From a virus (taxonomy: Duplodnaviria > Heunggongvirae > Uroviricota > Caudoviricetes), in the IMG/VR virus record IMGVR_UViG_2541047807_000007: a stretch of DNA of 33,905 bases; one strand, 5' to 3'. Of the stretch, positions 3,327 through 10,832 are shown one piece after another. The notes below the pieces were generated by a model. The model searched no databases. It was given only the letters and a program-made list of their open reading frames with translations, and was not told the DNA's origin. A program made the translations under genes and the position numbers. Positions within the stretch are counted from its first letter, which is position 1; each line of letters starts with the position of its first letter.

Positions 3327-3539
3327 ATGCATACAGTTTCTGAAAATCAGTGCGGTAAATACGCATTAATGCTGCAACAGGCCAGAACCGAAGCACAGGC
3401 TGACGCAGCAACGCGCTTTTCGTCTCATCTTGATGCCATGATTCGCCACATCACAAAGGCGGAGTTATCCCGCGTGGAGATAGTCGAGTTGCTCAGTCAG
3501 GAGTCTGCCAAATTCCATAATCTAGGACTCAATAAATAA
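3327..3539 (+). CDS. Small early hypothetical protein (70 aa)
   Basis: ATG with GGAG SD; in the P2 orf80-83 block between B and A. Confidence 0.6.
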
Positions 3540-3553
3540 CAGGAAAGTTGGAA

Positions 3554-4310: not shown

Positions 4311-4582
4311 GTATTCGTATTGAAATTGGCGAACGTTATGTCGTTACCAGTGACAGCTTTCAGTTTATTCTCCACGAGAAAAAGAGAGCGGAAAGCGGTA
4401 AAAACGCCGGTCAGGAATGGCTGGCGGTGGTTGGTTATTACCCGAAATTAAGCCAGCTCGTTTCCGGCCTGATGCATCACGATATTCTGACCGGAAGCGC
4501 AAAGTCTTTTGCTGATTTAAACGCGCAGGTTGAGCAACTCAGCAAGCGTTGCTCAGAGGCTTTTGGCTCATATGGCCGTTAA
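4307..4582 (+). CDS. Small early hypothetical protein (91 aa)
   Basis: ATGA overlap with the upstream gene; 11-nt overlap with the A start. Confidence 0.55.
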   Translation: MSIRIEIGERYVVTSDSFQFILHEKKRAESGKNAGQEWLAVVGYYPKLSQLVSGLMHHDILTGSAKSFADLNAQVEQLSKRCSEAFGSYGR

Positions 4583-6848
4583 AGCCTCCGGGCGTTTTGT
4601 CCCTCCGTCAGCATTTGCCGCAGGCACCGGTAAGGCGTTTACCGGTGCTTATGCATGGAACGCGCCACGCGAGGCTGTCGGGCGCGAAAGACCCCTTACA
4701 CGTGACGAGATGCGTCAGGTGCAAGGTGTTTTATCCACGATTAACCGCCTGCCTTACTTTTTGCGCTCGCTGTTTACTTCACGCTATGACTACATCCGGC
4801 GCAATAAAAGCACGGTGCACGGGTTTTATTTCCTCACATCCACTTTTCAGCGTCGTTTATGGCCGCGCATTGAGCGTGTGAATCAGCGCCATGAAATGAA
4901 CACCGACGCGTCGTTGCTGTTTCTGGCAGAGCGTGACCACTATGCGCGCCTGCCGGGAATGAATGACAAGGAGCTGAAAAAGTTTGCCGCCCGTATCTCA
5001 TCGCAGCTTTTCATGATGTATGAGGAACTCAGCGATGCCTGGGTGGATGCGCATGGCGAAAAAGAATCGCTGTTTACGGATGAGGCGCAGGCTCACCTGT
5101 ATGGTCATGTTGCTGGCGCTGCACGTGCTTTCAATATTTCCCCGCTCTACTGGAAAAAATACTGTAAAGGACAGATGACCACGAGGCAGGCATATTCTGC
5201 CATTGCCCGCCTGTTTAACGATGAGTGGTGGACTCATCAGCTTAAAGGCCAGCGTATGCGCTGGCATGAGGCGTTACTGATTGCTGTAGGGGAGGTCAAT
5301 AAAGACCGTTCTCCTTATGCCAGTAAACACGCCATTCGTGATGTGCGTGCACGCCGCCAGGCAAATCTGGAATTTCTTAAATCGTGTGACCTCGAAAACA
5401 GGGAAACCGGCGAGCGCATCGACCTTATCAGTAAGGTGATGGGCAGTATTTCTAATCCTGAAATTCGTCGGATGGAGTTGATGAACACCATTGCCGGTAT
5501 TGAGCGTTACGCCGCCGCAGAGGGCGATGTGGGGATGTTTATCACGCTGACCGCGCCGTCAAAGTATCACCCGACACGTCAGGTCGGAAAAGGCGAAAGT
5601 AAAACCGTCCAGCTTAATCACGGCTGGAATGATGAGGCATTTAATCCAAAGGATGCGCAGCGATATCTCTGCCGTATCTGGAGCCTGATGCGCACGGCAT
5701 TCAAGGATAATGATTTACAGGCCTACGGTTTGCGTGTCGTTGAGCCACACCACGACGGAACGCCGCACTGGCATATGATGCTTTTTTGTAATCCACGCCA
5801 GCGTAACCAGATTATCGAAATCATGCGTCGCTATGCGCTTAAAGAGGATGGCGACGAAAGAGGAGCCGCGCGAAACCGTTTTCAGGCAAAACACCTTAAC
5901 CGGGGCGGTGCTGCGGGGTATATCGCGAAATACATCTCAAAAAACATCGACGGATATGCACTGGATGGTCAGCTCGATAACGATACCGGCAGGCCGCTGA
6001 AAGACACAGCAGCGGCTGTTACCGCATGGGCGTCAACGTGGCGTATCCCGCAATTTAAAACGGTTGGTCTGCCGACAATGGGGGCTTACCGTGAACTACG
6101 CAAATTGCCTCGTGGCGTCAGCATTGCTGATGAGTTTGACGAACGCGTCGAGGCTGCACGCGCCGCCGCAGACAGTGGTGATTTTGCGTTGTATATCAGC
6201 GCGCAGGGTGGGGCAAATGTCCCGCGCGATTGTCAGACTGTCAGGGTTGCCCGTAGCCCGTCGGATGACGTTAACGAGTATGAGGAAGAAGTCGAGAGAG
6301 TGGTCGGCATTTACGCGCCGCATCTCGGCGCGCGTCATATTCATATCACCAGAACCACGGACTGGCGCATTGTTCCGAAAGTTCCTGTCGTTGAGCCTTT
6401 GACTTTAAAAAGCGGCATCGCCGCGCCTCGGAGTCCTGTCAATAACTGTGGAAAGCTCACCGGTGGTGATACTTCGTTACCGGCTCCCACACCTTCTGAA
6501 CACGCCGCAGCAGTGCTTAATCTGGTTGATGACGGTGTTATCGAATGGAACGACACGGAGGTCGTGAGGGCGCTCAGGGGGGCATTAAAACACGACCTGA
6601 GAACACCAAATCGTCAGCAAAGAAACGGAAGCCCGTTAAAACCACATGAAATTGCACCATCGGCCAGACTGACCCGGTCGGAAAGAATGCAAATTACCCG
6701 TATCCGCGTTGACCTTGCTCAGAACGGTATCAGGCCGCAGCGATGGGAGCTTGAGGCGCTGGCGCGTGGCGCGACCGTAAATTATTACGGGAAATCTTTC
6801 AATTATCAGGTCGCTGATGAGTGGCCTGGATTTTTGTTACCCATTTGA
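4572..6848 (+). CDS. A: Replication initiation endonuclease gpA (rolling-circle HUH/Y initiator; 758 aa from first ATG, track ORF starts at a TTG at 4530)
   Basis: HUH metal-binding motif (PHWHMMLF) and catalytic tyrosine motif (GYIAKYISKN); size and position of P2 gpA. Confidence 0.9.
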   Translation: MAVKASGRFVPPSAFAAGTGKAFTGAYAWNAPREAVGRERPLTRDEMRQVQGVLSTINRLPYFLRSLFTSRYDYIRRNKSTVHGFYFLTSTFQRRLWPRIERVNQRHEMNTDASLLFLAERDHYARLPGMNDKELKKFAARISSQLFMMYEELSDAWVDAHGEKESLFTDEAQAHLYGHVAGAARAFNISPLYWKKYCKGQMTTRQAYSAIARLFNDEWWTHQLKGQRMRWHEALLIAVGEVNKDRSPYASKHAIRDVRARRQANLEFLKSCDLENRETGERIDLISKVMGSISNPEIRRMELMNTIAGIERYAAAEGDVGMFITLTAPSKYHPTRQVGKGESKTVQLNHGWNDEAFNPKDAQRYLCRIWSLMRTAFKDNDLQAYGLRVVEPHHDGTPHWHMMLFCNPRQRNQIIEIMRRYALKEDGDERGAARNRFQAKHLNRGGAAGYIAKYISKNIDGYALDGQLDNDTGRPLKDTAAAVTAWASTWRIPQFKTVGLPTMGAYRELRKLPRGVSIADEFDERVEAARAAADSGDFALYISAQGGANVPRDCQTVRVARSPSDDVNEYEEEVERVVGIYAPHLGARHIHITRTTDWRIVPKVPVVEPLTLKSGIAAPRSPVNNCGKLTGGDTSLPAPTPSEHAAAVLNLVDDGVIEWNDTEVVRALRGALKHDLRTPNRQQRNGSPLKPHEIAPSARLTRSERMQITRIRVDLAQNGIRPQRWELEALARGATVNYYGKSFNYQVADEWPGFLLPI

Positions 6849-7107
6849 GTAAAAATGCAGCGTGATTTTATATGCCTTTGAATGGATTATGCGAAGCGCC
6901 TCTAAGGCAGATGAGGAGCAATAGCATGCTGAAGTAGAAGGCTAAATTGTATTGAATCGCTAGCATGTAATTTAAGGCAGCTATTTGATTCGAGTCATAA
7001 AAGAGCATCTATTTCGGCTAATAAAACCATTGCGAGTGACCTTTTGTCGAAGCATAATTCATCTCGAGCGAAGTCTTGCTAGTCTTTCATCGGAATGATG
7101 ACAGGCG

Positions 7108-7139
7108 CAAAAAAACCACCCTGGCAGGTGGTTTTTTTG
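7108..7139. terminator. Bidirectional intrinsic terminator (A7 - ACCACC-CTGGCA-GGTGGT - T7)
   Basis: GC-containing stem flanked by an A-tract upstream and a T-tract downstream, about 260 bp after the A stop. Confidence 0.7.
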
Positions 7140-7836
7140 TTTGAAGCATACTAAAGAATAATACTTACATGGATATTACTGACGTTTACTGACAAACCAC
7201 TTGGACTACCATATGGATAGCCAAAGAGGGCCAGAACGAGAATGCAGTAATAGCACTTCTTCATATCTCCTCCTGTAAGCAGAGGGCAATTTCCGCCGAT
7301 ATATGCGCTTCTGAGGCGGAGTTACTATTTAGCGAAGTCTTGCCCTGAAATAATGCTCTGTTTAAACGCAAAGTGATCTGGCATATCACCGAACAGAGAG
7401 CCTGAACAACACAACATATAGTATGTCGTTGTTTCTGGTTGCATTTTATGTTGTGTAATACTGGTTTTGCATCAAGGATGTTTGAGCTTTTTTTGATATA
7501 GCTCAAAGTAAAAAGCAGGGACTACGGATGATAAGGTATTGAAAGCAATGTAAATTTTTTAAAGTTATTAGTGGCTAAAAAATGCACGGTTTCAATATGG
7601 CGGACTTAAATAAGCAATTAAAAAAGTCATAAATATCACTAAAATCATGGTGTTACGTTTTTTTTGTGGGAGCTGCGGTGACGCTTAAGTTGATTTGTCA
7701 TTAAATAAGCCGTGCATGCAACAAGTGAATGTTTTTGCATGCGTCGGGGATGCCCGTTCCAGCTGCTCGCGGTCAGAGCTGGTGCGGATCCATAGTATCT
7801 ATGCAACTGCATTAAAACCGCCACATGAAGCGGGCG

Positions 7837-7855
7837 GGCGAGGCGGGGAAAGCAC
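7837..7855. other. cos cohesive-end site, 19-nt GGCGAGGCGGGGAAAGCAC
   Basis: Exact match to the P2/P4 cohesive-end sequence as I recall it, inside a local GC-rich island in otherwise AT-rich DNA, in the expected A...cos...Q interval. Confidence 0.65.
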
Positions 7856-7961
7856 CGCGCGTAAGATAAACAGAAGAGCGAAGGATTATGGTTGAGTATT
7901 TGTGTTTTTGTACATATGATAAAAAGGTGTTTACGCTTAAAAACACATCAAAGGAGATGAT

Positions 7962-9263
7962 ATGGAAAATATAAAGATTGATAAGTTTCTCACTATTCAA
8001 AAAGTTGATATTCCTCTTAAGAAAGTGAATATATTTATTGGGCCTCAGGCACAGGGGAAAAGTGTCATTGCAAAGCTAATAAAATATTTTAAAGATTATC
8101 CTATGGATATACTACGAGCTTCAACAGAGGGTAAAACTAAAAGAGATATATTGAAGGAGCAAAAGAATAAGTTTAGTAAAATTTTCCCTCAGCAGTATTG
8201 GGCTGATGATGAGTTTTTTATTGAGTATAGTAATAAGCACTATTGGGTGCGGATTACTAATCGAAAAAATAGCAAAGGGTCATTGAAAATAGACCTTTCT
8301 GAGAATTTAACGAAGACGATTGCTAAACTTCGTTTGATTGTACGAAAGGATTTAGATGAAAATATTGAGAATTCACTTGCAGAAAGCGTTACGAGAAGAC
8401 GTAAACGCGGAATTGAACATGAATTGCGAGTATGTCTTTCTCTAGGATTGTTTTCAGAACCAGAAACAAAGCTTGAAAGTGTTTTTTATATCCCCGCAGG
8501 GCGCTCTTTTTTTGCTAATTTGCAAAAAAATGTGTTTTCATTTTTATCCAGTAGTATAGAAATTGACTACTTTTTGACAGAGTTTGGTTCTCTGTATGAA
8601 CAAACAAAAAAATTATTTAACCAAGATTACATGATTAGGATGCTTAGGGGGGCTGTGCCTCAACATGTTAATAAACTTGTGGAGGAGTTGATTTGCGGAA
8701 AATATATAACAGAAAAGGGTGAGGATTTTATTCGTCATGCTGCTAAGAAGACGAATCTTAACAACTCGAGCTCAGGGCAGCAAGAAGCGTTACCAATGGC
8801 TTTAATGTTATCCTCATGGCCGTATTTACAGTCTGTGACTAGTAAGAGTTTTATTATTGAGGAGCCGGAGGCTCATCTGTTTCCTTCTGCCCAAGCAAAA
8901 GTTGTATCTTTAATAGCCTCAGCGTATAACCAAGCAGAAAGCTATTGTAGCTATACAATAACAACACATAGTCCATATATTCTAAGTGCCTTCAATAATT
9001 TGATTCAAGCAGGTAATGCATTAAAGTGTATTAAGGGCAAGAATAATACCGATATCGAACGCTTATATAAGCTTGTTCCAGAGTCTCAAATTATTGATTT
9101 TGATGATGTGACAGCTTATATGGTTAATGCTGGGAAAGTGACGGAAATACTGGATTCCGAACTAAATATATTAGATGCGAATGAAATAGATAGGATTTCC
9201 TCTATTTTTTCAGAGACTTTTGATGCATTGATTGATATCGAATATTCGGCTACTGTGAATTAG
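7962..9263 (+). CDS. OLD-like / AAA_21-type ABC ATPase (433 aa), no fused nuclease domain; cargo
   Basis: Walker A GPQAQGKS near the N-terminus, Q-loop-like YIPAGR, ABC signature-like SSGQQ, Walker B FIIEEPEAHLFP, H-loop TTHSP; SD AAGGAG; very AT-rich. Confidence 0.8.
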   Translation: MENIKIDKFLTIQKVDIPLKKVNIFIGPQAQGKSVIAKLIKYFKDYPMDILRASTEGKTKRDILKEQKNKFSKIFPQQYWADDEFFIEYSNKHYWVRITNRKNSKGSLKIDLSENLTKTIAKLRLIVRKDLDENIENSLAESVTRRRKRGIEHELRVCLSLGLFSEPETKLESVFYIPAGRSFFANLQKNVFSFLSSSIEIDYFLTEFGSLYEQTKKLFNQDYMIRMLRGAVPQHVNKLVEELICGKYITEKGEDFIRHAAKKTNLNNSSSGQQEALPMALMLSSWPYLQSVTSKSFIIEEPEAHLFPSAQAKVVSLIASAYNQAESYCSYTITTHSPYILSAFNNLIQAGNALKCIKGKNNTDIERLYKLVPESQIIDFDDVTAYMVNAGKVTEILDSELNILDANEIDRISSIFSETFDALIDIEYSATVN

Positions 9264-9271
9264 GTGATTGA

Positions 9272-9709
9272 ATGTGTAAAAATTGCAAAGGAAAAACAAA
9301 AAATAAAATCATTGTGCTATCTGATAAAGGAACATCAACGCAATTGTCAGTCACAAATGATAATGAGTTGGAAGTTGAGCATAAGTTAATAGATGGTTGC
9401 GCTATTGTTGTTGGAGAGCGGTGTGATCATTATTTGAAGATTTATAACAATCAGGATGTTTCACATCTTTTTGTTGAACTTAAAGGAAGTGATGTTGAAA
9501 AAGCTGTTAAACAGATAGTGACAACTTTAAAGTCAGGTGTGATTAATGTAGGTGCTAAAGAAAAAAAACATGGTGCTATTGTTAGCACTAGGAATCCGCT
9601 AAACTCAACAGAAACCAATAGGTTAAAGAAGAAAATTCTTTTGAGTGACGGAGTGAATTTGCATTTCTATAAAATGAAGGCGCAGCAAAAAATAACTTCT
9701 TTTACATGA
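9272..9709 (+). CDS. Hypothetical 145-aa Cys-containing partner of the ATPase (candidate effector)
   Basis: Starts 8 nt after the ATPase stop with SD AGGTGA; N-terminal CxxC (MCKNCKGK), C43/C51-DH, VELKGSD and LLSDG acidic motifs; same AT-rich composition as the ATPase. Confidence 0.65.
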   Translation: MCKNCKGKTKNKIIVLSDKGTSTQLSVTNDNELEVEHKLIDGCAIVVGERCDHYLKIYNNQDVSHLFVELKGSDVEKAVKQIVTTLKSGVINVGAKEKKHGAIVSTRNPLNSTETNRLKKKILLSDGVNLHFYKMKAQQKITSFT

Positions 9710-9812: not shown

Positions 9813-10832
9813 TCATAATGAATAAGTTCGAAAGCGAAATACATCTTCGCCAACCCAACAGTTAATTTCTTTACATCGCTCTTGGAGGAACGTTAGCTCG
9901 TTGCGTACAAAGACTTGTGCTGCTTTTGTTACATCTCCAAATCCTCCTGTGTTGTTGGGCATCATTCCTATCATTTGGGGAGGCACGCGATGAGCACTCA
10001 TTAGATCTTCAGCACTTGCTTTTTTGATATTAAAAAAATCGTCCTTCGTCGCCACTTCACTGAGCGGGATAATTTTAATGCCGTCGGCTTTCCCCTGTGG
10101 GGCATAGAGAAACAGATTTTTAAAATTGTTGCGGCCTTTCGACTTCACCATGTTTTCGCGAAGCATTTCGATATCGTTGCGGTCCTGCACGGCATCGGTG
10201 ACGTACATGATGTATCCGGCATGTGCGCCGTTTTCGTAATACTTGCGGCGGAACAGCGTGGCCGACTCATTCAGCCAGGCAGAATTAAGGGCGCTGAGAT
10301 ATTCCGGCAGACCGTACAGCTCCTGATTGATATCCGGCTCCAGCAGGTGAAACACGGAGCCGGGCGCGAAAGGTGTCGGCTCGTTAAAGGACGGCACCCA
10401 CCAGTAAACATCCTCTTCCACACCACGGCGGGTATATTTTGCCGGTGAGGTTTCCAGTCTGATGACCTTACCGGTGGTGCTGTAGCGCTTTTCCAGAAAC
10501 GCATTACCGAACACCAGAAAATCCAGCACAAAGCGGCTGAAATCCTGCTGGGAAAGCCACGGATGCGGGATAAATGTCGAGGCCAGAATATTGCGTTTGA
10601 CGTAAATCGGCGAGCTGTGATGCACGGCAGCACGCAGACTTTTTGCCAGGCCGGTAAAGCTGACCGGTGGCTCATACCATCTGCCGTTACTGATGCACTC
10701 GACGTAATCCAGAATGTCACGGCGGTCGAGTACCGGCACCGGCTCACCAAAGGTGAATGCCTCCATTTTCGGGGCGCTGGCGGTCATTTTTTTTGCCGCA
10801 GGTTGCGGTGTTTTCCCTTTTTTCTTACTCAT
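9813..10832 (-). CDS. Q: Portal (capsid) protein gpQ (339 aa)
   Basis: P2 order and size; ATGA overlap with the P stop; first gene inside cos on the leftward late operon. Confidence 0.9.
   Translation of the reverse strand: MSKKKGKTPQPAAKKMTASAPKMEAFTFGEPVPVLDRRDILDYVECISNGRWYEPPVSFTGLAKSLRAAVHHSSPIYVKRNILASTFIPHPWLSQQDFSRFVLDFLVFGNAFLEKRYSTTGKVIRLETSPAKYTRRGVEEDVYWWVPSFNEPTPFAPGSVFHLLEPDINQELYGLPEYLSALNSAWLNESATLFRRKYYENGAHAGYIMYVTDAVQDRNDIEMLRENMVKSKGRNNFKNLFLYAPQGKADGIKIIPLSEVATKDDFFNIKKASAEDLMSAHRVPPQMIGMMPNNTGGFGDVTKAAQVFVRNELTFLQERCKEINCWVGEDVFRFRTYSL

Follow-up and report, generated by a model that had tools for sequence, protein, structure and literature searches.

The par locus of the Enterococcus faecalis plasmid pAD1, which encodes Fst RNA I and RNA II, has convergent promoters, a common bidirectional terminator and direct repeats that give rise to complementarity between the two transcripts (PMC7472228). 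The enterobacterial pairs tisB/istR-1, dinQ/agrB, zorO/orzO and shoB/ohsC are divergently encoded (PMC7667032), whereas in both their case and that of the locus described here the hosts are enterobacterial and a structured mRNA with restrained translation is combined with a short complementarity in the leader, far 5' of the ribosome-binding site. In timP/timR (ryfA) of Salmonella and E. coli, a core-genome locus in which timR is divergent and upstream, a small RNA also pairs with the leader (PMC7667032). Here we propose that a segment of about 570 bp, at approximately 6985-7557 of the window (the whole 33,905-nt stretch of DNA analysed), is probably a type I toxin-antitoxin-like two-gene module with a layout like that of pAD1 par. 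As in type I systems, a small (<60 aa), genuinely coding ORF for a hydrophobic peptide of membrane type, as judged from its sequence, neighbours a predicted small RNA that is complementary to the peptide mRNA in silico. Similar to par, two convergent promoters face a common bidirectional intrinsic terminator, and a direct repeat, one instead of two, would let the small RNA pair through its 5' part with the 5' region of the peptide mRNA. However, par is Gram-positive and shares no sequence similarity with the module. The peptides and RNAs of tisB/istR-1, dinQ/agrB, zorO/orzO and shoB/ohsC are unrelated to it as well, with no NCBIfam or Rfam match, and the module differs from these pairs and from timPR in being convergent with a common terminator and, compared with the latter, mobile.

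The module lies between gene A, whose stop is at 6848, and the 19-nt cos cohesive end GGCGAGGCGGGGAAAGCAC (7837..7855, plus strand), which is identical to the annotated cosR of P2 (NC_001895). An earlier note had described this interval as an AT-rich tract without ORFs, and its location and composition were confirmed (GC 33-45% versus 50-57% in gene A), as was the presence of orf91, tin and old at the same position in the P2 annotation (NC_001895). The tract is part of the known variable A-Q hotspot of P2-like phages (PMC9122126). No PGAP annotation was found on it in any of the 183 E. coli genomes matching the tract, and no annotated CDS covers any part of it in any E. coli genome. The note had suggested decayed cargo or a remnant of defence genes. 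Such an origin from old/tin pseudogenes, or an identity as plain spacer, would suit the hotspot location, the AT-rich composition and the two portions to which no function is assigned (6849-6984 and 7558-7684), but it seems scarcely credible to us for the tract as a whole. No trace of Orf91, Tin or Old was found at the protein or nucleotide level: tblastn of the three P2 proteins against the 988-bp target returned noise only (best E 0.086), and the sole blastn match of the P2 A-cos interval was the final 29 bp before cos. No annotated CDS underlies any homologue. In addition, conservation of the core is punctuated, its ORF is under purifying selection and its RNA shows covariation, and the core is sharply bounded and kept at 75% identity on unrelated plasmids, while decaying DNA would behave otherwise. 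Therefore, the decay reading is unsupported, and for the module core it is already contradicted.

Homology among carriers starts near 6985 and stops near 7557, delimiting a self-contained unit. About 150 of 5,426 complete E. coli genomes carry the module, every time within a P2-like prophage. In addition, 7050-7435 matches approximately 400 Klebsiella, Enterobacter and Citrobacter plasmids (392 of them from Klebsiella) with about 75% identity, and these copies have no phage context, unrelated gene surroundings and adjoining IS elements. A further copy was found on a Citrobacter contig, and one contig carries two. Judged by this spread, the module is autonomous and horizontally mobile. Its left edge (6985..7029, plus strand) comprises TTGAT-N4-GTCAT (6985-6998) and the A/T-rich GCTAATAAA just 5' of the -35 hexamer of the small-RNA promoter. 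The plasmid and Citrobacter copies retain this edge, which might act in the manner of an UP element. An activator site of the small-RNA promoter at TTGAT-N4-GTCAT was considered and rejected, as the spacing varies and one copy (L009) has a 14-nt deletion.

The flanks of the module behave differently. The portion 3' of gene A (6849..6984) is P2-backbone spacer seen only in P2-like prophages and never under an annotated CDS, and 6888-6975 also follows gene A in P2-like elements without the module. A 46-aa ORF (6868..7008) falls mostly within this P2-specific flank. On the other side, 7558..7684 is an AT-rich spacer specific to the P2 lineage, which only 65 E. coli genomes carry, in none of them under a CDS, with 2% of columns invariant and no homology with the plasmid copies. 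It is followed by the conserved right-end side of cos (7685..7836), which shares 80-93% identity with the genome right ends of P2, 186 and Yersinia phages and is presumably the packaging/terminase recognition side; linear P2/186-type genomes terminate at window 7835-7836.

The claim that the tract holds no plausible ORF did not survive: the minus strand carries an ORF of 37 codons plus stop (7264..7151; MKKCYYCILVLALFGYPYGSPSGLSVNVSNIHVSIIL), which is conserved, shows purifying selection and encodes a candidate small membrane toxin. The Shine-Dalgarno sequence (A)GGAGGAG (7267..7274) is located 4 nt 5' of the ATG, and its GGAGG is present in all copies with the sole deviation of GGAGA in L007. 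All 12 peptide variants, in 17 nucleotide versions, have exactly 37 codons with zero indels. The dN/dS values are 0.08-0.38, and 15, 12 and 26 variable sites fall on the first, second and third codon positions, the third being the most variable. The viral and metagenome sequences were fetched by a peptide-core pattern, which enriches intact cores but leaves start, stop and length free; three plasmid copies were found by nucleotide similarity, and their intact ORFs are therefore no product of the selection method. By its pattern of substitution, the 37-codon ORF is a real coding sequence. Alternative ORFs of 37 aa (6985..7098), 81 aa (7261..7506) and 39 aa (7325..7444) were discarded, being broken or changed in length in diverged copies, for example by the deletion in L009. 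Two small repeats listed in the earlier note, the 10-bp-period repeat TTACTGAC (7176-7196) and the two ATGGATA copies (7170-7176 and 7213-7219), are indeed present; both lie inside the ORF and neither is kept as a DNA repeat in diverged copies. On this pattern they reflect the peptide sequence (..SVNVSN..) and form no separate element.

The N-terminal half of the peptide is hydrophobic, with the pattern [KR]xxxCILVL[AT]LFGYP, and no variant contains Asp, Glu, Lys or Arg beyond residue 3. Some 13-15 hydrophobic residues are present, without a long transmembrane stretch or a charged C-terminal tail. Because both of these features are missing, the peptide is, from its sequence, not a textbook type I toxin. 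Its length agrees with the ~33-37 aa of the peptides of par systems, which are also carried on plasmids and phages (PMC7472228), but the Fst/Ldr signature, which combines a transmembrane helix with a conserved Trp, a strongly charged C-terminus and PXXXG, is absent from the peptide, and no Pfam or NCBIfam match was obtained. Trp24 occurs only in the plasmid and Citrobacter types, and in place of PXXXG the spacing is P17-x-G19. TimP is broadly similar in architecture, its 38-41 aa comprising a hydrophobic N-terminal half and a polar tail rich in Ser, Asn and Val (compare MKIRCFCIVLIV... with MNRLCLCILVLT...). Homology with TimP, suspected from the CxCI(V/L)(L/V) start, was rejected, as BLASTP gave no alignment and the profile-profile comparison by hhalign a probability of 11% over 11 residues; homology with ryfA (RF00126) was rejected too, as the RNA gave no informative alignment and no ryfA match was seen in the Rfam scan up to E = 10 within 6700-8000. 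Searches of the peptide against Pfam, NCBIfam and PADLOC returned zero family matches, and PHROGs a single match with E = 0.41. Exact look-up revealed the peptide only under the name 'hypothetical protein', in one phage record and some GenBank submissions, and a literature search found no published papers on the peptide, the seed sequence or the locus tags. A single-sequence AlphaFold model gave two short helices with a pLDDT of 70, a moderate-to-low confidence. The speculation that a cleaved signal peptide frees an amphipathic beta-strand was set aside in view of these helices, which are themselves predicted with low confidence.

On the plus strand, the promoter scan predicted a sigma-70 promoter at 7030..7058, with -35 TTGCGA, a 17-bp spacer and -10 CATAAT. 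Among the 41 unique module sequences, the -10 hexamer is 100% invariant, the -35 hexamer 83% and the spacer sequence 24%, while the spacer length is constantly 17 bp; the consensus TTGCGR-17-CATAAT looks constitutive. Transcription from it would yield a small RNA of about 75 nt (7066..7141), a candidate antitoxin whose start was placed 7 nt 3' of the -10 hexamer. The predicted RNA begins with a seed at its 5' end, followed by a hairpin, an A-rich linker and, with a U tail, the terminator hairpin, and it folds with a minimum free energy of -31.9 kcal/mol (z-score -5.1; none of 200 shuffles was as good). The middle hairpin (7082..7106) is variable in sequence and conserved in structure: 15% of columns are invariant, but 95.5% of cells are paired, compared with 81% in shuffles and 38-65% when the structure is slid by 1-3 columns. 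Compensatory changes were found in 4 of its 6 pairs, and its U-G pairs are valid only on the plus strand, since they would be A-C mismatches on the opposite strand. These patterns indicate that the hairpin and the promoter of the small RNA are under selection.

The strong bidirectional terminator described in the earlier note is borne out. Its arms (7108-7120 and 7127-7139) are 13 nt long and 100% complementary, the inverted repeat folds as a 14-bp hairpin, and the element (7108..7139) is nearly invariant in all copies, those on plasmids included. It is common to both predicted convergent transcripts and provides a second complementary region between the two RNAs. No Rfam family matched at gathering thresholds across the whole window, and a permissive scan of 6700-8000 gave only sub-threshold matches driven by the terminator, namely RNAI (26 bits versus a threshold of 47) and Phe_leader.

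The 13-mer AGCGAAGTCTTGC, which had been noticed as a repeat, is found at two places in the window and no more (7067 and 7331, plus strand in each case); shuffled sequence averages 0.03 matches, and two matches were seen in none of 100 shuffles. Copy 1, (G)AGCGAAGTCTTGC (7066..7079, plus strand), sits exactly at the 5' end predicted from the -10 hexamer and would be the 5'-terminal seed of the small RNA. Copy 2 (7330..7343, minus strand), GCAAGACUUCGCU(C/A) in the mRNA, is the predicted target of the small RNA and lies 56 nt 5' of the Shine-Dalgarno sequence. As the repeat is direct and the genes are read from opposite strands, the predicted RNAs can pair at this point, over 13-16 bp; the repeat reaches 16 nt in the plasmid type. 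The repeat and the terminator recorded in the earlier note thus form key parts of the predicted small-RNA/mRNA pair, and its option of an sRNA locus fits. Compared with par, in which the repeats DRa and DRb cover the fst initiation region, the single repeat of the module is placed well 5' of the ribosome-binding site.

The conservation of the repeat bears on whether it acts in RNA. In copy 1, 13 of 14 columns are invariant in the 41 sequences, and the only change, C14 to T, which was seen in two lineages, leaves a U:G pair with the target. The internal changes of copy 2, T9 to C in the L039 group and G13 to A in L007, each result in a G:U pair with the small RNA. All four kinds of internal substitution thus lead to G:U pairs, which by a rough estimate, assuming that about one third of random substitutions keep pairing through G:U, has p ~0.01 for four events. 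From this pattern, the two copies are co-conserved so that RNA pairing is kept. The evidence for pairing amounts to four or five wobble-type changes in a highly conserved seed, with no full compensatory swaps. The C to T change of copy 1 also fits a small intramolecular hairpin. Very improbably, in our estimation, the small ORF lacks a regulatory RNA pair and the 13-mer is a DNA-level feature, such as a protein-binding site or a recombination scar, the plus-strand region being only the downstream side of the bidirectional terminator. Near-invariance of both copies is what a protein-binding site would show, and the want of an Rfam match agrees with it; however, recognition of DNA would not predict substitutions that all preserve wobble pairing. 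Nor does such a feature account for conserved -35 and -10 hexamers that are constantly 17 bp apart and whose distance from copy 1 is exactly as expected of a promoter, or for a hairpin between copy 1 and the terminator that is kept through compensatory, strand-specific G-U changes.

The peptide mRNA has a structured 5' leader of 171 nt (7265..7435, minus strand) with conserved helices. These are a nested hairpin at 7356-7398 (CUCUGUU/AACAGAG around GGUGAU/AUCACU) and a helix UCCGCC/GGCGGA, which together are 97.6% paired, compared with 38-53% in slid controls. Compensatory changes occur in two pairs; since most pairs are invariant, the helices give little covariation evidence. The predicted folds of the leader vary among homologues. 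A helix takes up the 5' part of copy 2, with the sequence AGGGCAA/UUGCCCU in the P2 type; the plasmid type has GGUGGC/GCCGCC instead. In the predicted fold of the full-length mRNA, most of the Shine-Dalgarno sequence is base-paired, which resembles the intramolecular sequestration described for par (PMC7472228). With the near edge of the target 56 nt upstream, direct occlusion of the ribosome-binding site by the small RNA is impossible. Pairing of the small-RNA arm AAGAGG with the leader segment CCUCUG, examined by RNAduplex, was rejected, being weak, confined to plasmid types and absent in the P2 type.

The promoter of the peptide gene resembles that of the E. coli nrdDG operon, with 78-82% identity over ~118 bp. 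Window 7466-7583 matches the region upstream of nrdD in all of the 5,426 E. coli genomes, and a 59-bp core that spans both mapped FNR sites is nearly identical to the nrdDG promoter. The -10 hexamer TAAAAT (7443..7448, minus strand) aligns with that of nrdDG, and every copy has either TAAAAT or TAGAAT. The mapped nrdDG promoter, through its homology, places the predicted mRNA start at 7435/7436, and its FNR sites are located at -33.5 and -64.5 (PMC10425943). The module has a predicted FNR box 1, TTGATGCAAAACCA (7462..7475, minus strand; centre -33.5), homologous to nrdDG site 1, which reads TTGATGCAAATCAC in the plasmid and Citrobacter copies with 9 of 10 consensus positions. Predicted FNR box 2, TTGAGCTATATCAA (7493..7506, minus strand; centre -64.5), has 9 of 10 consensus positions as well and is 31 bp from box 1, a distance equal to that in nrdDG; its half-sites TTG..(N8)..TCAA are present in all copies, while the sequence between them varies. 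Thus, the boxes agree with TTGAT-N4-ATCAA at 8-9 of 10 positions and have the correct distance to the -10 hexamer. All diverged copies retain the two boxes at a spacing of 31 bp, as well as the -10 hexamer, against changing flanks. Further upstream, 7507..7557 contains the GTAAAAAG and ATGTAAATTT blocks shared with nrdDG and forms the right edge of the module, since at 7557 homology stops with both the plasmid copies and the K-12 nrdD-treC intergenic region. We infer that the module promoter is homologous to PnrdDG, either copied or of common ancestry, and FNR-type anaerobic control of the peptide gene is probable from these features. Unlike PnrdDG, the module promoter drives a 37-codon ORF and not nrdDG, and the leaders are unrelated. 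A stress regulator at the toxin promoter is a trait shared with tisB and dinQ, whose promoters are under LexA (PMC13159721), but the boxes of the module are those of FNR, possibly also NrdR, and not LexA.

Based on these features, we propose how the module might work. The PnrdDG-like promoter would start an mRNA of ~330 nt at about 7435 on the minus strand, which would end at the terminator (7139-7108), while the promoter at 7030-7058 would start the ~75-nt RNA at about 7066, directed toward the peptide gene and stopping at the common terminator. Upon pairing with the mRNA leader 5' of the ribosome-binding site, the small RNA may open the leader helix that holds a C-rich segment, and the freed segment could pair with GGAGG, so that translation stays off. 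Alternatively or additionally, the small-RNA/leader duplex might block a ribosome standby site or trigger cleavage. The peptide would be made once the mRNA exceeds the small RNA, for example by FNR activation without oxygen or when the element is lost. On this model, both RNAs would be transcribed, the peptide would be toxic, the small RNA would repress and not activate, and the peptide gene would depend on FNR. The same genes might also operate without forming a toxin-antitoxin pair, the product being a harmless anaerobic membrane or secreted peptide that modulates host or phage function, and the small RNA only tuning its translation or even activating it by opening the leader. The target overlaps an arm of the leader helix, and anti-antisense activation fits this as well as repression does; many type I toxins have a charged tail, unlike this peptide, and cells tolerate native levels of TimP, an enterobacterial small protein of broadly comparable type (PMC7667032). 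We nevertheless regard a harmless product as rather unlikely, as the locus combines a strong Shine-Dalgarno sequence, predicted to be sequestered, with a convergent small RNA of its own, which is the standard way of restraining a harmful product. Moreover, addiction-type modules typically spread as self-contained units, as this one does across plasmids, prophages and IS-rich regions.

If the toxin-antitoxin reading is true, the module would be a new peptide/small-RNA family among the enterobacterial type I systems and would extend the convergent par layout to Gram-negative bacteria. We know of no earlier case of such a toxin behind an FNR-type anaerobic promoter, and control by oxygen would bear on how prophages and plasmids are maintained and perhaps on the exclusion of phages in the gut. 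In ~150 complete E. coli genomes, among them those of E. coli W and ST131 strains, the stretch of about 1 kb passes for empty, and the module is also unannotated on the ~400 large Klebsiella plasmids. Surveys of the P2 A-Q hotspot list protein-coding cargo only (PMC9122126, PMC13586616). A bolder and quite doubtful proposal is that the module is a small-RNA-gated, physiology-sensing abortive-infection or maintenance toxin in the defence hotspot of P2-like prophages and on Klebsiella plasmids. Release of the membrane-active peptide would then be confined to anaerobic conditions, and possibly to a change in the dNTP/ATP signal read by NrdR, as during replication of an infecting phage, and the module would represent a class of defence with a non-protein sensor, invisible to protein-centred hotspot surveys. 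Palindromes resembling NrdR boxes are found in several module variants, as in the nrdDG promoter, where they are 31 bp apart compared with 41-43 bp in the module; NrdR-like box 1 is degenerate in the P2-type copy.

The window is a complete P2-like prophage, in which the integrase occupies 1-996 and replication gene A 4530-6848, and portal Q and terminase P are encoded on the minus strand, starting at 9813. The 19-nt cohesive end of cos, GGCGAGGCGGGGAAAGCAC (7837-7855), is the same as the annotated cosR of P2, and positions 7835-7836 are the end point of linear P2/186-type phage genomes. The tract between A and cos is AT-rich as the earlier note described (33-45% GC versus 50-57% in gene A), and carries no PGAP annotation in any of the 183 matching complete E. 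coli genomes. Based on sequence comparisons, we propose that its core is rather likely a new, widespread and unannotated type I toxin-antitoxin-like module, probably under anaerobic control.

The tract had been described as free of ORFs, which turned out to be wrong. A 37-codon ORF lies on the minus strand (7264..7151), with AGGAGGAG 4 nt upstream of its ATG and its end 11 nt before the terminator. Searching with a degenerate pattern of the peptide core yielded 29 loci from viral and 30 from metagenome collections, and all of them have the 37-codon frame with start, stop and Shine-Dalgarno sequence, features outside the peptide core that alone was constrained by the pattern. Three plasmid copies were retrieved by nucleotide similarity, and therefore their intact frames are independent evidence. 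The ORF encodes 12 distinct peptides in all, sixteen positions being invariant, including C7-I-L-V-L, L13-F-G-Y-P, G19, S22-G23, S25 and V28. Pairwise dN/dS values range from 0.08 to 0.38, and the variable sites at codon positions 1, 2 and 3 number 15, 12 and 26, respectively. The coding status of the ORF is well supported by these comparisons. The TTACTGAC repeat of 10-bp period and the repeated ATGGATA are present as reported; both fall within the ORF, and diverged copies do not preserve them as DNA repeats. No family in Pfam, NCBIfam or PADLOC matched the peptide, and PHROGs gave a single non-significant match (E = 0.41). Homology to TimP, which has a similar composition, failed all tests. 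Public databases name the peptide only 'hypothetical protein' (E. coli W, for instance, has it as ECW_m2278), and no paper mentioning the peptide, seed or locus tags was found.

Convergent to the peptide gene, the plus strand carries a predicted small RNA (7066-7141). Its promoter-like sequence TTGCGA-17-CATAAT (7030-7058) is kept across 41 unique module sequences, with an invariant -10 hexamer and a -35 hexamer invariant at 5 of 6 positions; the spacer is always 17 bp, yet only 24% of its columns are kept. The start predicted from this promoter, 7065-7067, coincides with the first base of repeat copy 1. The RNA would extend about 75 nt to the U tract, with a predicted folding energy of -31.9 kcal/mol (z = -5.1). 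It would end at the strong terminator noted earlier, whose two 13-nt arms are perfectly complementary, with 6 nt of loop between them, an A run on one side and a T run on the other. Nowhere in the module is conservation lower than between the seed and this terminator (15% invariant columns), yet a hairpin forms there in every copy, with compensatory changes in four of its six pairs. Pairing in this middle hairpin is 95.5%; the value is 81% for shuffled sequence and 38-65% with the partner columns shifted, and on the other strand the U-G pairs would become A-C mismatches. Promoter conservation, fold, covariation and strand-specific U-G pairs together indicate a structured plus-strand RNA under selection, a conclusion well supported at the sequence level. 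Among the explanations offered earlier, the sRNA locus is the right one; decayed cargo is wrong for the tract, whose core is a discrete module with a conserved ORF. The earlier observation as a whole is partly confirmed.

The 13-mer AGCGAAGTCTTGC occurs, as claimed, at exactly two sites in the 33.9-kb window, 7067 and 7331, both on the plus strand, whereas shuffled sequence gives 0.03 matches on average. Because the peptide gene and the small RNA converge, their transcripts are complementary at this direct DNA repeat: the 5' end of the small RNA reads GAGCGAAGUCUUGC and the mRNA leader GCAAGACUUCGCU(C). The match measures 13 nt in the window; it is longer in close relatives (14 nt) and in the plasmid type (16 nt). 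Thirteen of 14 positions of copy 1 are invariant. All internal substitutions in either copy convert a Watson-Crick pair of the predicted duplex to G:U, namely copy-1 C14 to T, which is seen twice (in a plasmid copy and in the O121-type P2 lineage), copy-2 T9 to C in one group of homologous loci (L039) and copy-2 G13 to A in a further homologous locus (L007); the window's own copy-2 change, G1 to T, affects the terminal pair alone. This G:U-preserving bias is not predicted if the repeat is a DNA-binding site. Pairing of the small RNA with the mRNA through the repeat is moderately supported. The shared terminator gives the two RNAs a second stretch of full complementarity.

In the mRNA leader, an invariant nested hairpin (7356-7398) and the helix UCCGCC/GGCGGA are jointly 97.6% paired, with two compensatory events and most pairs without any variation. 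The 5' part of the target site sits in a lineage-specific helix (P2 type, AGGGCAA/UUGCCCU; plasmid type, GGUGGC/GCCGCC), the C-rich 3' arm of which is immediately upstream of GGAGG. Predicted leader folds vary among homologues, and in partition-function folds of several of them this arm is the chief alternative partner of the Shine-Dalgarno sequence. Binding of the small RNA to the leader target would release the C-rich arm, which might then sequester the ribosome-binding site.

Each of 5,426 E. coli genomes contains a single match to window 7466-7583, located in the intergenic DNA that precedes nrdD, and a 59-bp core of it is almost identical. This region is the nrdDG promoter, which has two FNR sites centred at -33.5 and -64.5 (PMC10425943). 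By homology, FNR boxes are predicted on the minus strand at 7475..7462 (TTGATGCAAAACCA) and 7506..7493 (TTGAGCTATATCAA), followed by the -10 hexamer TAAAAT (7448..7443), and the start is placed at 7435/7436, facing the small ORF. In the plasmid and Citrobacter copies the intervening sequence is altered, but the -10 hexamer is retained and so are the two boxes at a spacing of 31 bp; FNR box 1 of these copies, TTGATGCAAATCAC, is nearer to consensus. We infer that the peptide is toxic, that regulation runs in the proposed direction and that expression depends on FNR. Alongside the FNR boxes, several variants (window 7409-7456; L007, L039 and another locus, L009) retain palindromes resembling the nrdDG NrdR boxes. 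One of them, CTATATATAG, is found in L007 and L039 in the interval from FNR box 1 to the -10 hexamer. Cores like NrdR box 2 (CTATATGTTG, CAACATATTG, CAATATGCTG) lie downstream of the hexamer; the spacing of the NrdR-like boxes is 41-43 bp, whereas that in nrdDG is 31 bp. A perfect 10-nt inverted repeat occurs here in the window (7409-7418/7447-7456).

Of 5,426 complete E. coli genomes, about 150 have the tract, at 85-100% identity and with a P2-type gene A upstream of it in every case. Matches to nucleotides 7050-7435 were also found in 408 plasmid records (392 from Klebsiella); about 396 of the 408 are at ~75% identity, mostly large conjugative IncF plasmids, and a Citrobacter freundii contig carries one more diverged copy. 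In three plasmids inspected, the neighbours are non-phage: ABC transporter genes, IS66/IS110/IS3 elements and a RES-domain gene. Homology among the P2-type, plasmid and Citrobacter copies starts near 6985 and stops near 7557, whereas the flanks (6849-6984 and 7558-7684) are confined to P2-like phages and in no case overlap an annotated gene. The tract core is a discrete mobile module. Plasmid pJ53-KPC_Vir (locus L008) has an annotated dinQ type I toxin gene (4401-4538 of L008), flanked by IS elements, some 1 kb away from the module. One metagenome contig (L058) holds two diverged copies 2.9 kb apart (3516-3550 and 6436-6470) beside an IS110-family transposase. At the left edge of the module, TTGAT-N4-GTCAT (6985-6998), which resembles an FNR or CRP site, is conserved, but it stands at varying distances from the small-RNA promoter.

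The published description of the par locus of pAD1 matches the module layout (PMC7472228). However, the peptide fails the Fst/Ldr signature and shows no sequence similarity, and therefore the module would be par-like in working and is not a par member. Two of its predicted features, a pairing site at a long distance upstream of the ribosome-binding site and a toxin promoter under stress control, are reminiscent of tisB/istR-1 and dinQ/agrB, but those pairs are divergent and the module is convergent. Surveys of P2 hotspots analysed protein-coding cargo alone (PMC9122126, PMC13586616).

The closest public match to the tract (99.8%) is in E. coli E24377A (NC_009801), whose prophage is degraded, with portal, tail assembly and tape-measure pseudogenes beside an IS21-family element; unlike it, the prophage of the window appears intact. 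Within the final codons of gene A, a terminator-like hairpin followed by ATTTTTGTTA (6806-6829, plus strand) may be the end of the early operon. The cos-proximal segment has two 11-nt inverted repeats, both 91% complementary (7582-7592/7707-7717 and 7714-7724/7732-7742), and a promoter-like TTAAAA-16-TAAAAT (7618-7645) directed towards cos. Phage P2 itself does carry orf91, tin and old between A and cos, as the earlier note stated, whereas the only annotated cargo here lies beyond cos. It comprises an AAA ATPase (7962-9263, plus strand; PADLOC PDC-M29A, E = 1.9e-31; also AriA-, GajA- and PtuA-like) and a 145-aa partner (9272-9709, plus strand; PDC-M29B, E = 1.6e-4), a candidate two-gene defence system between cos and Q.
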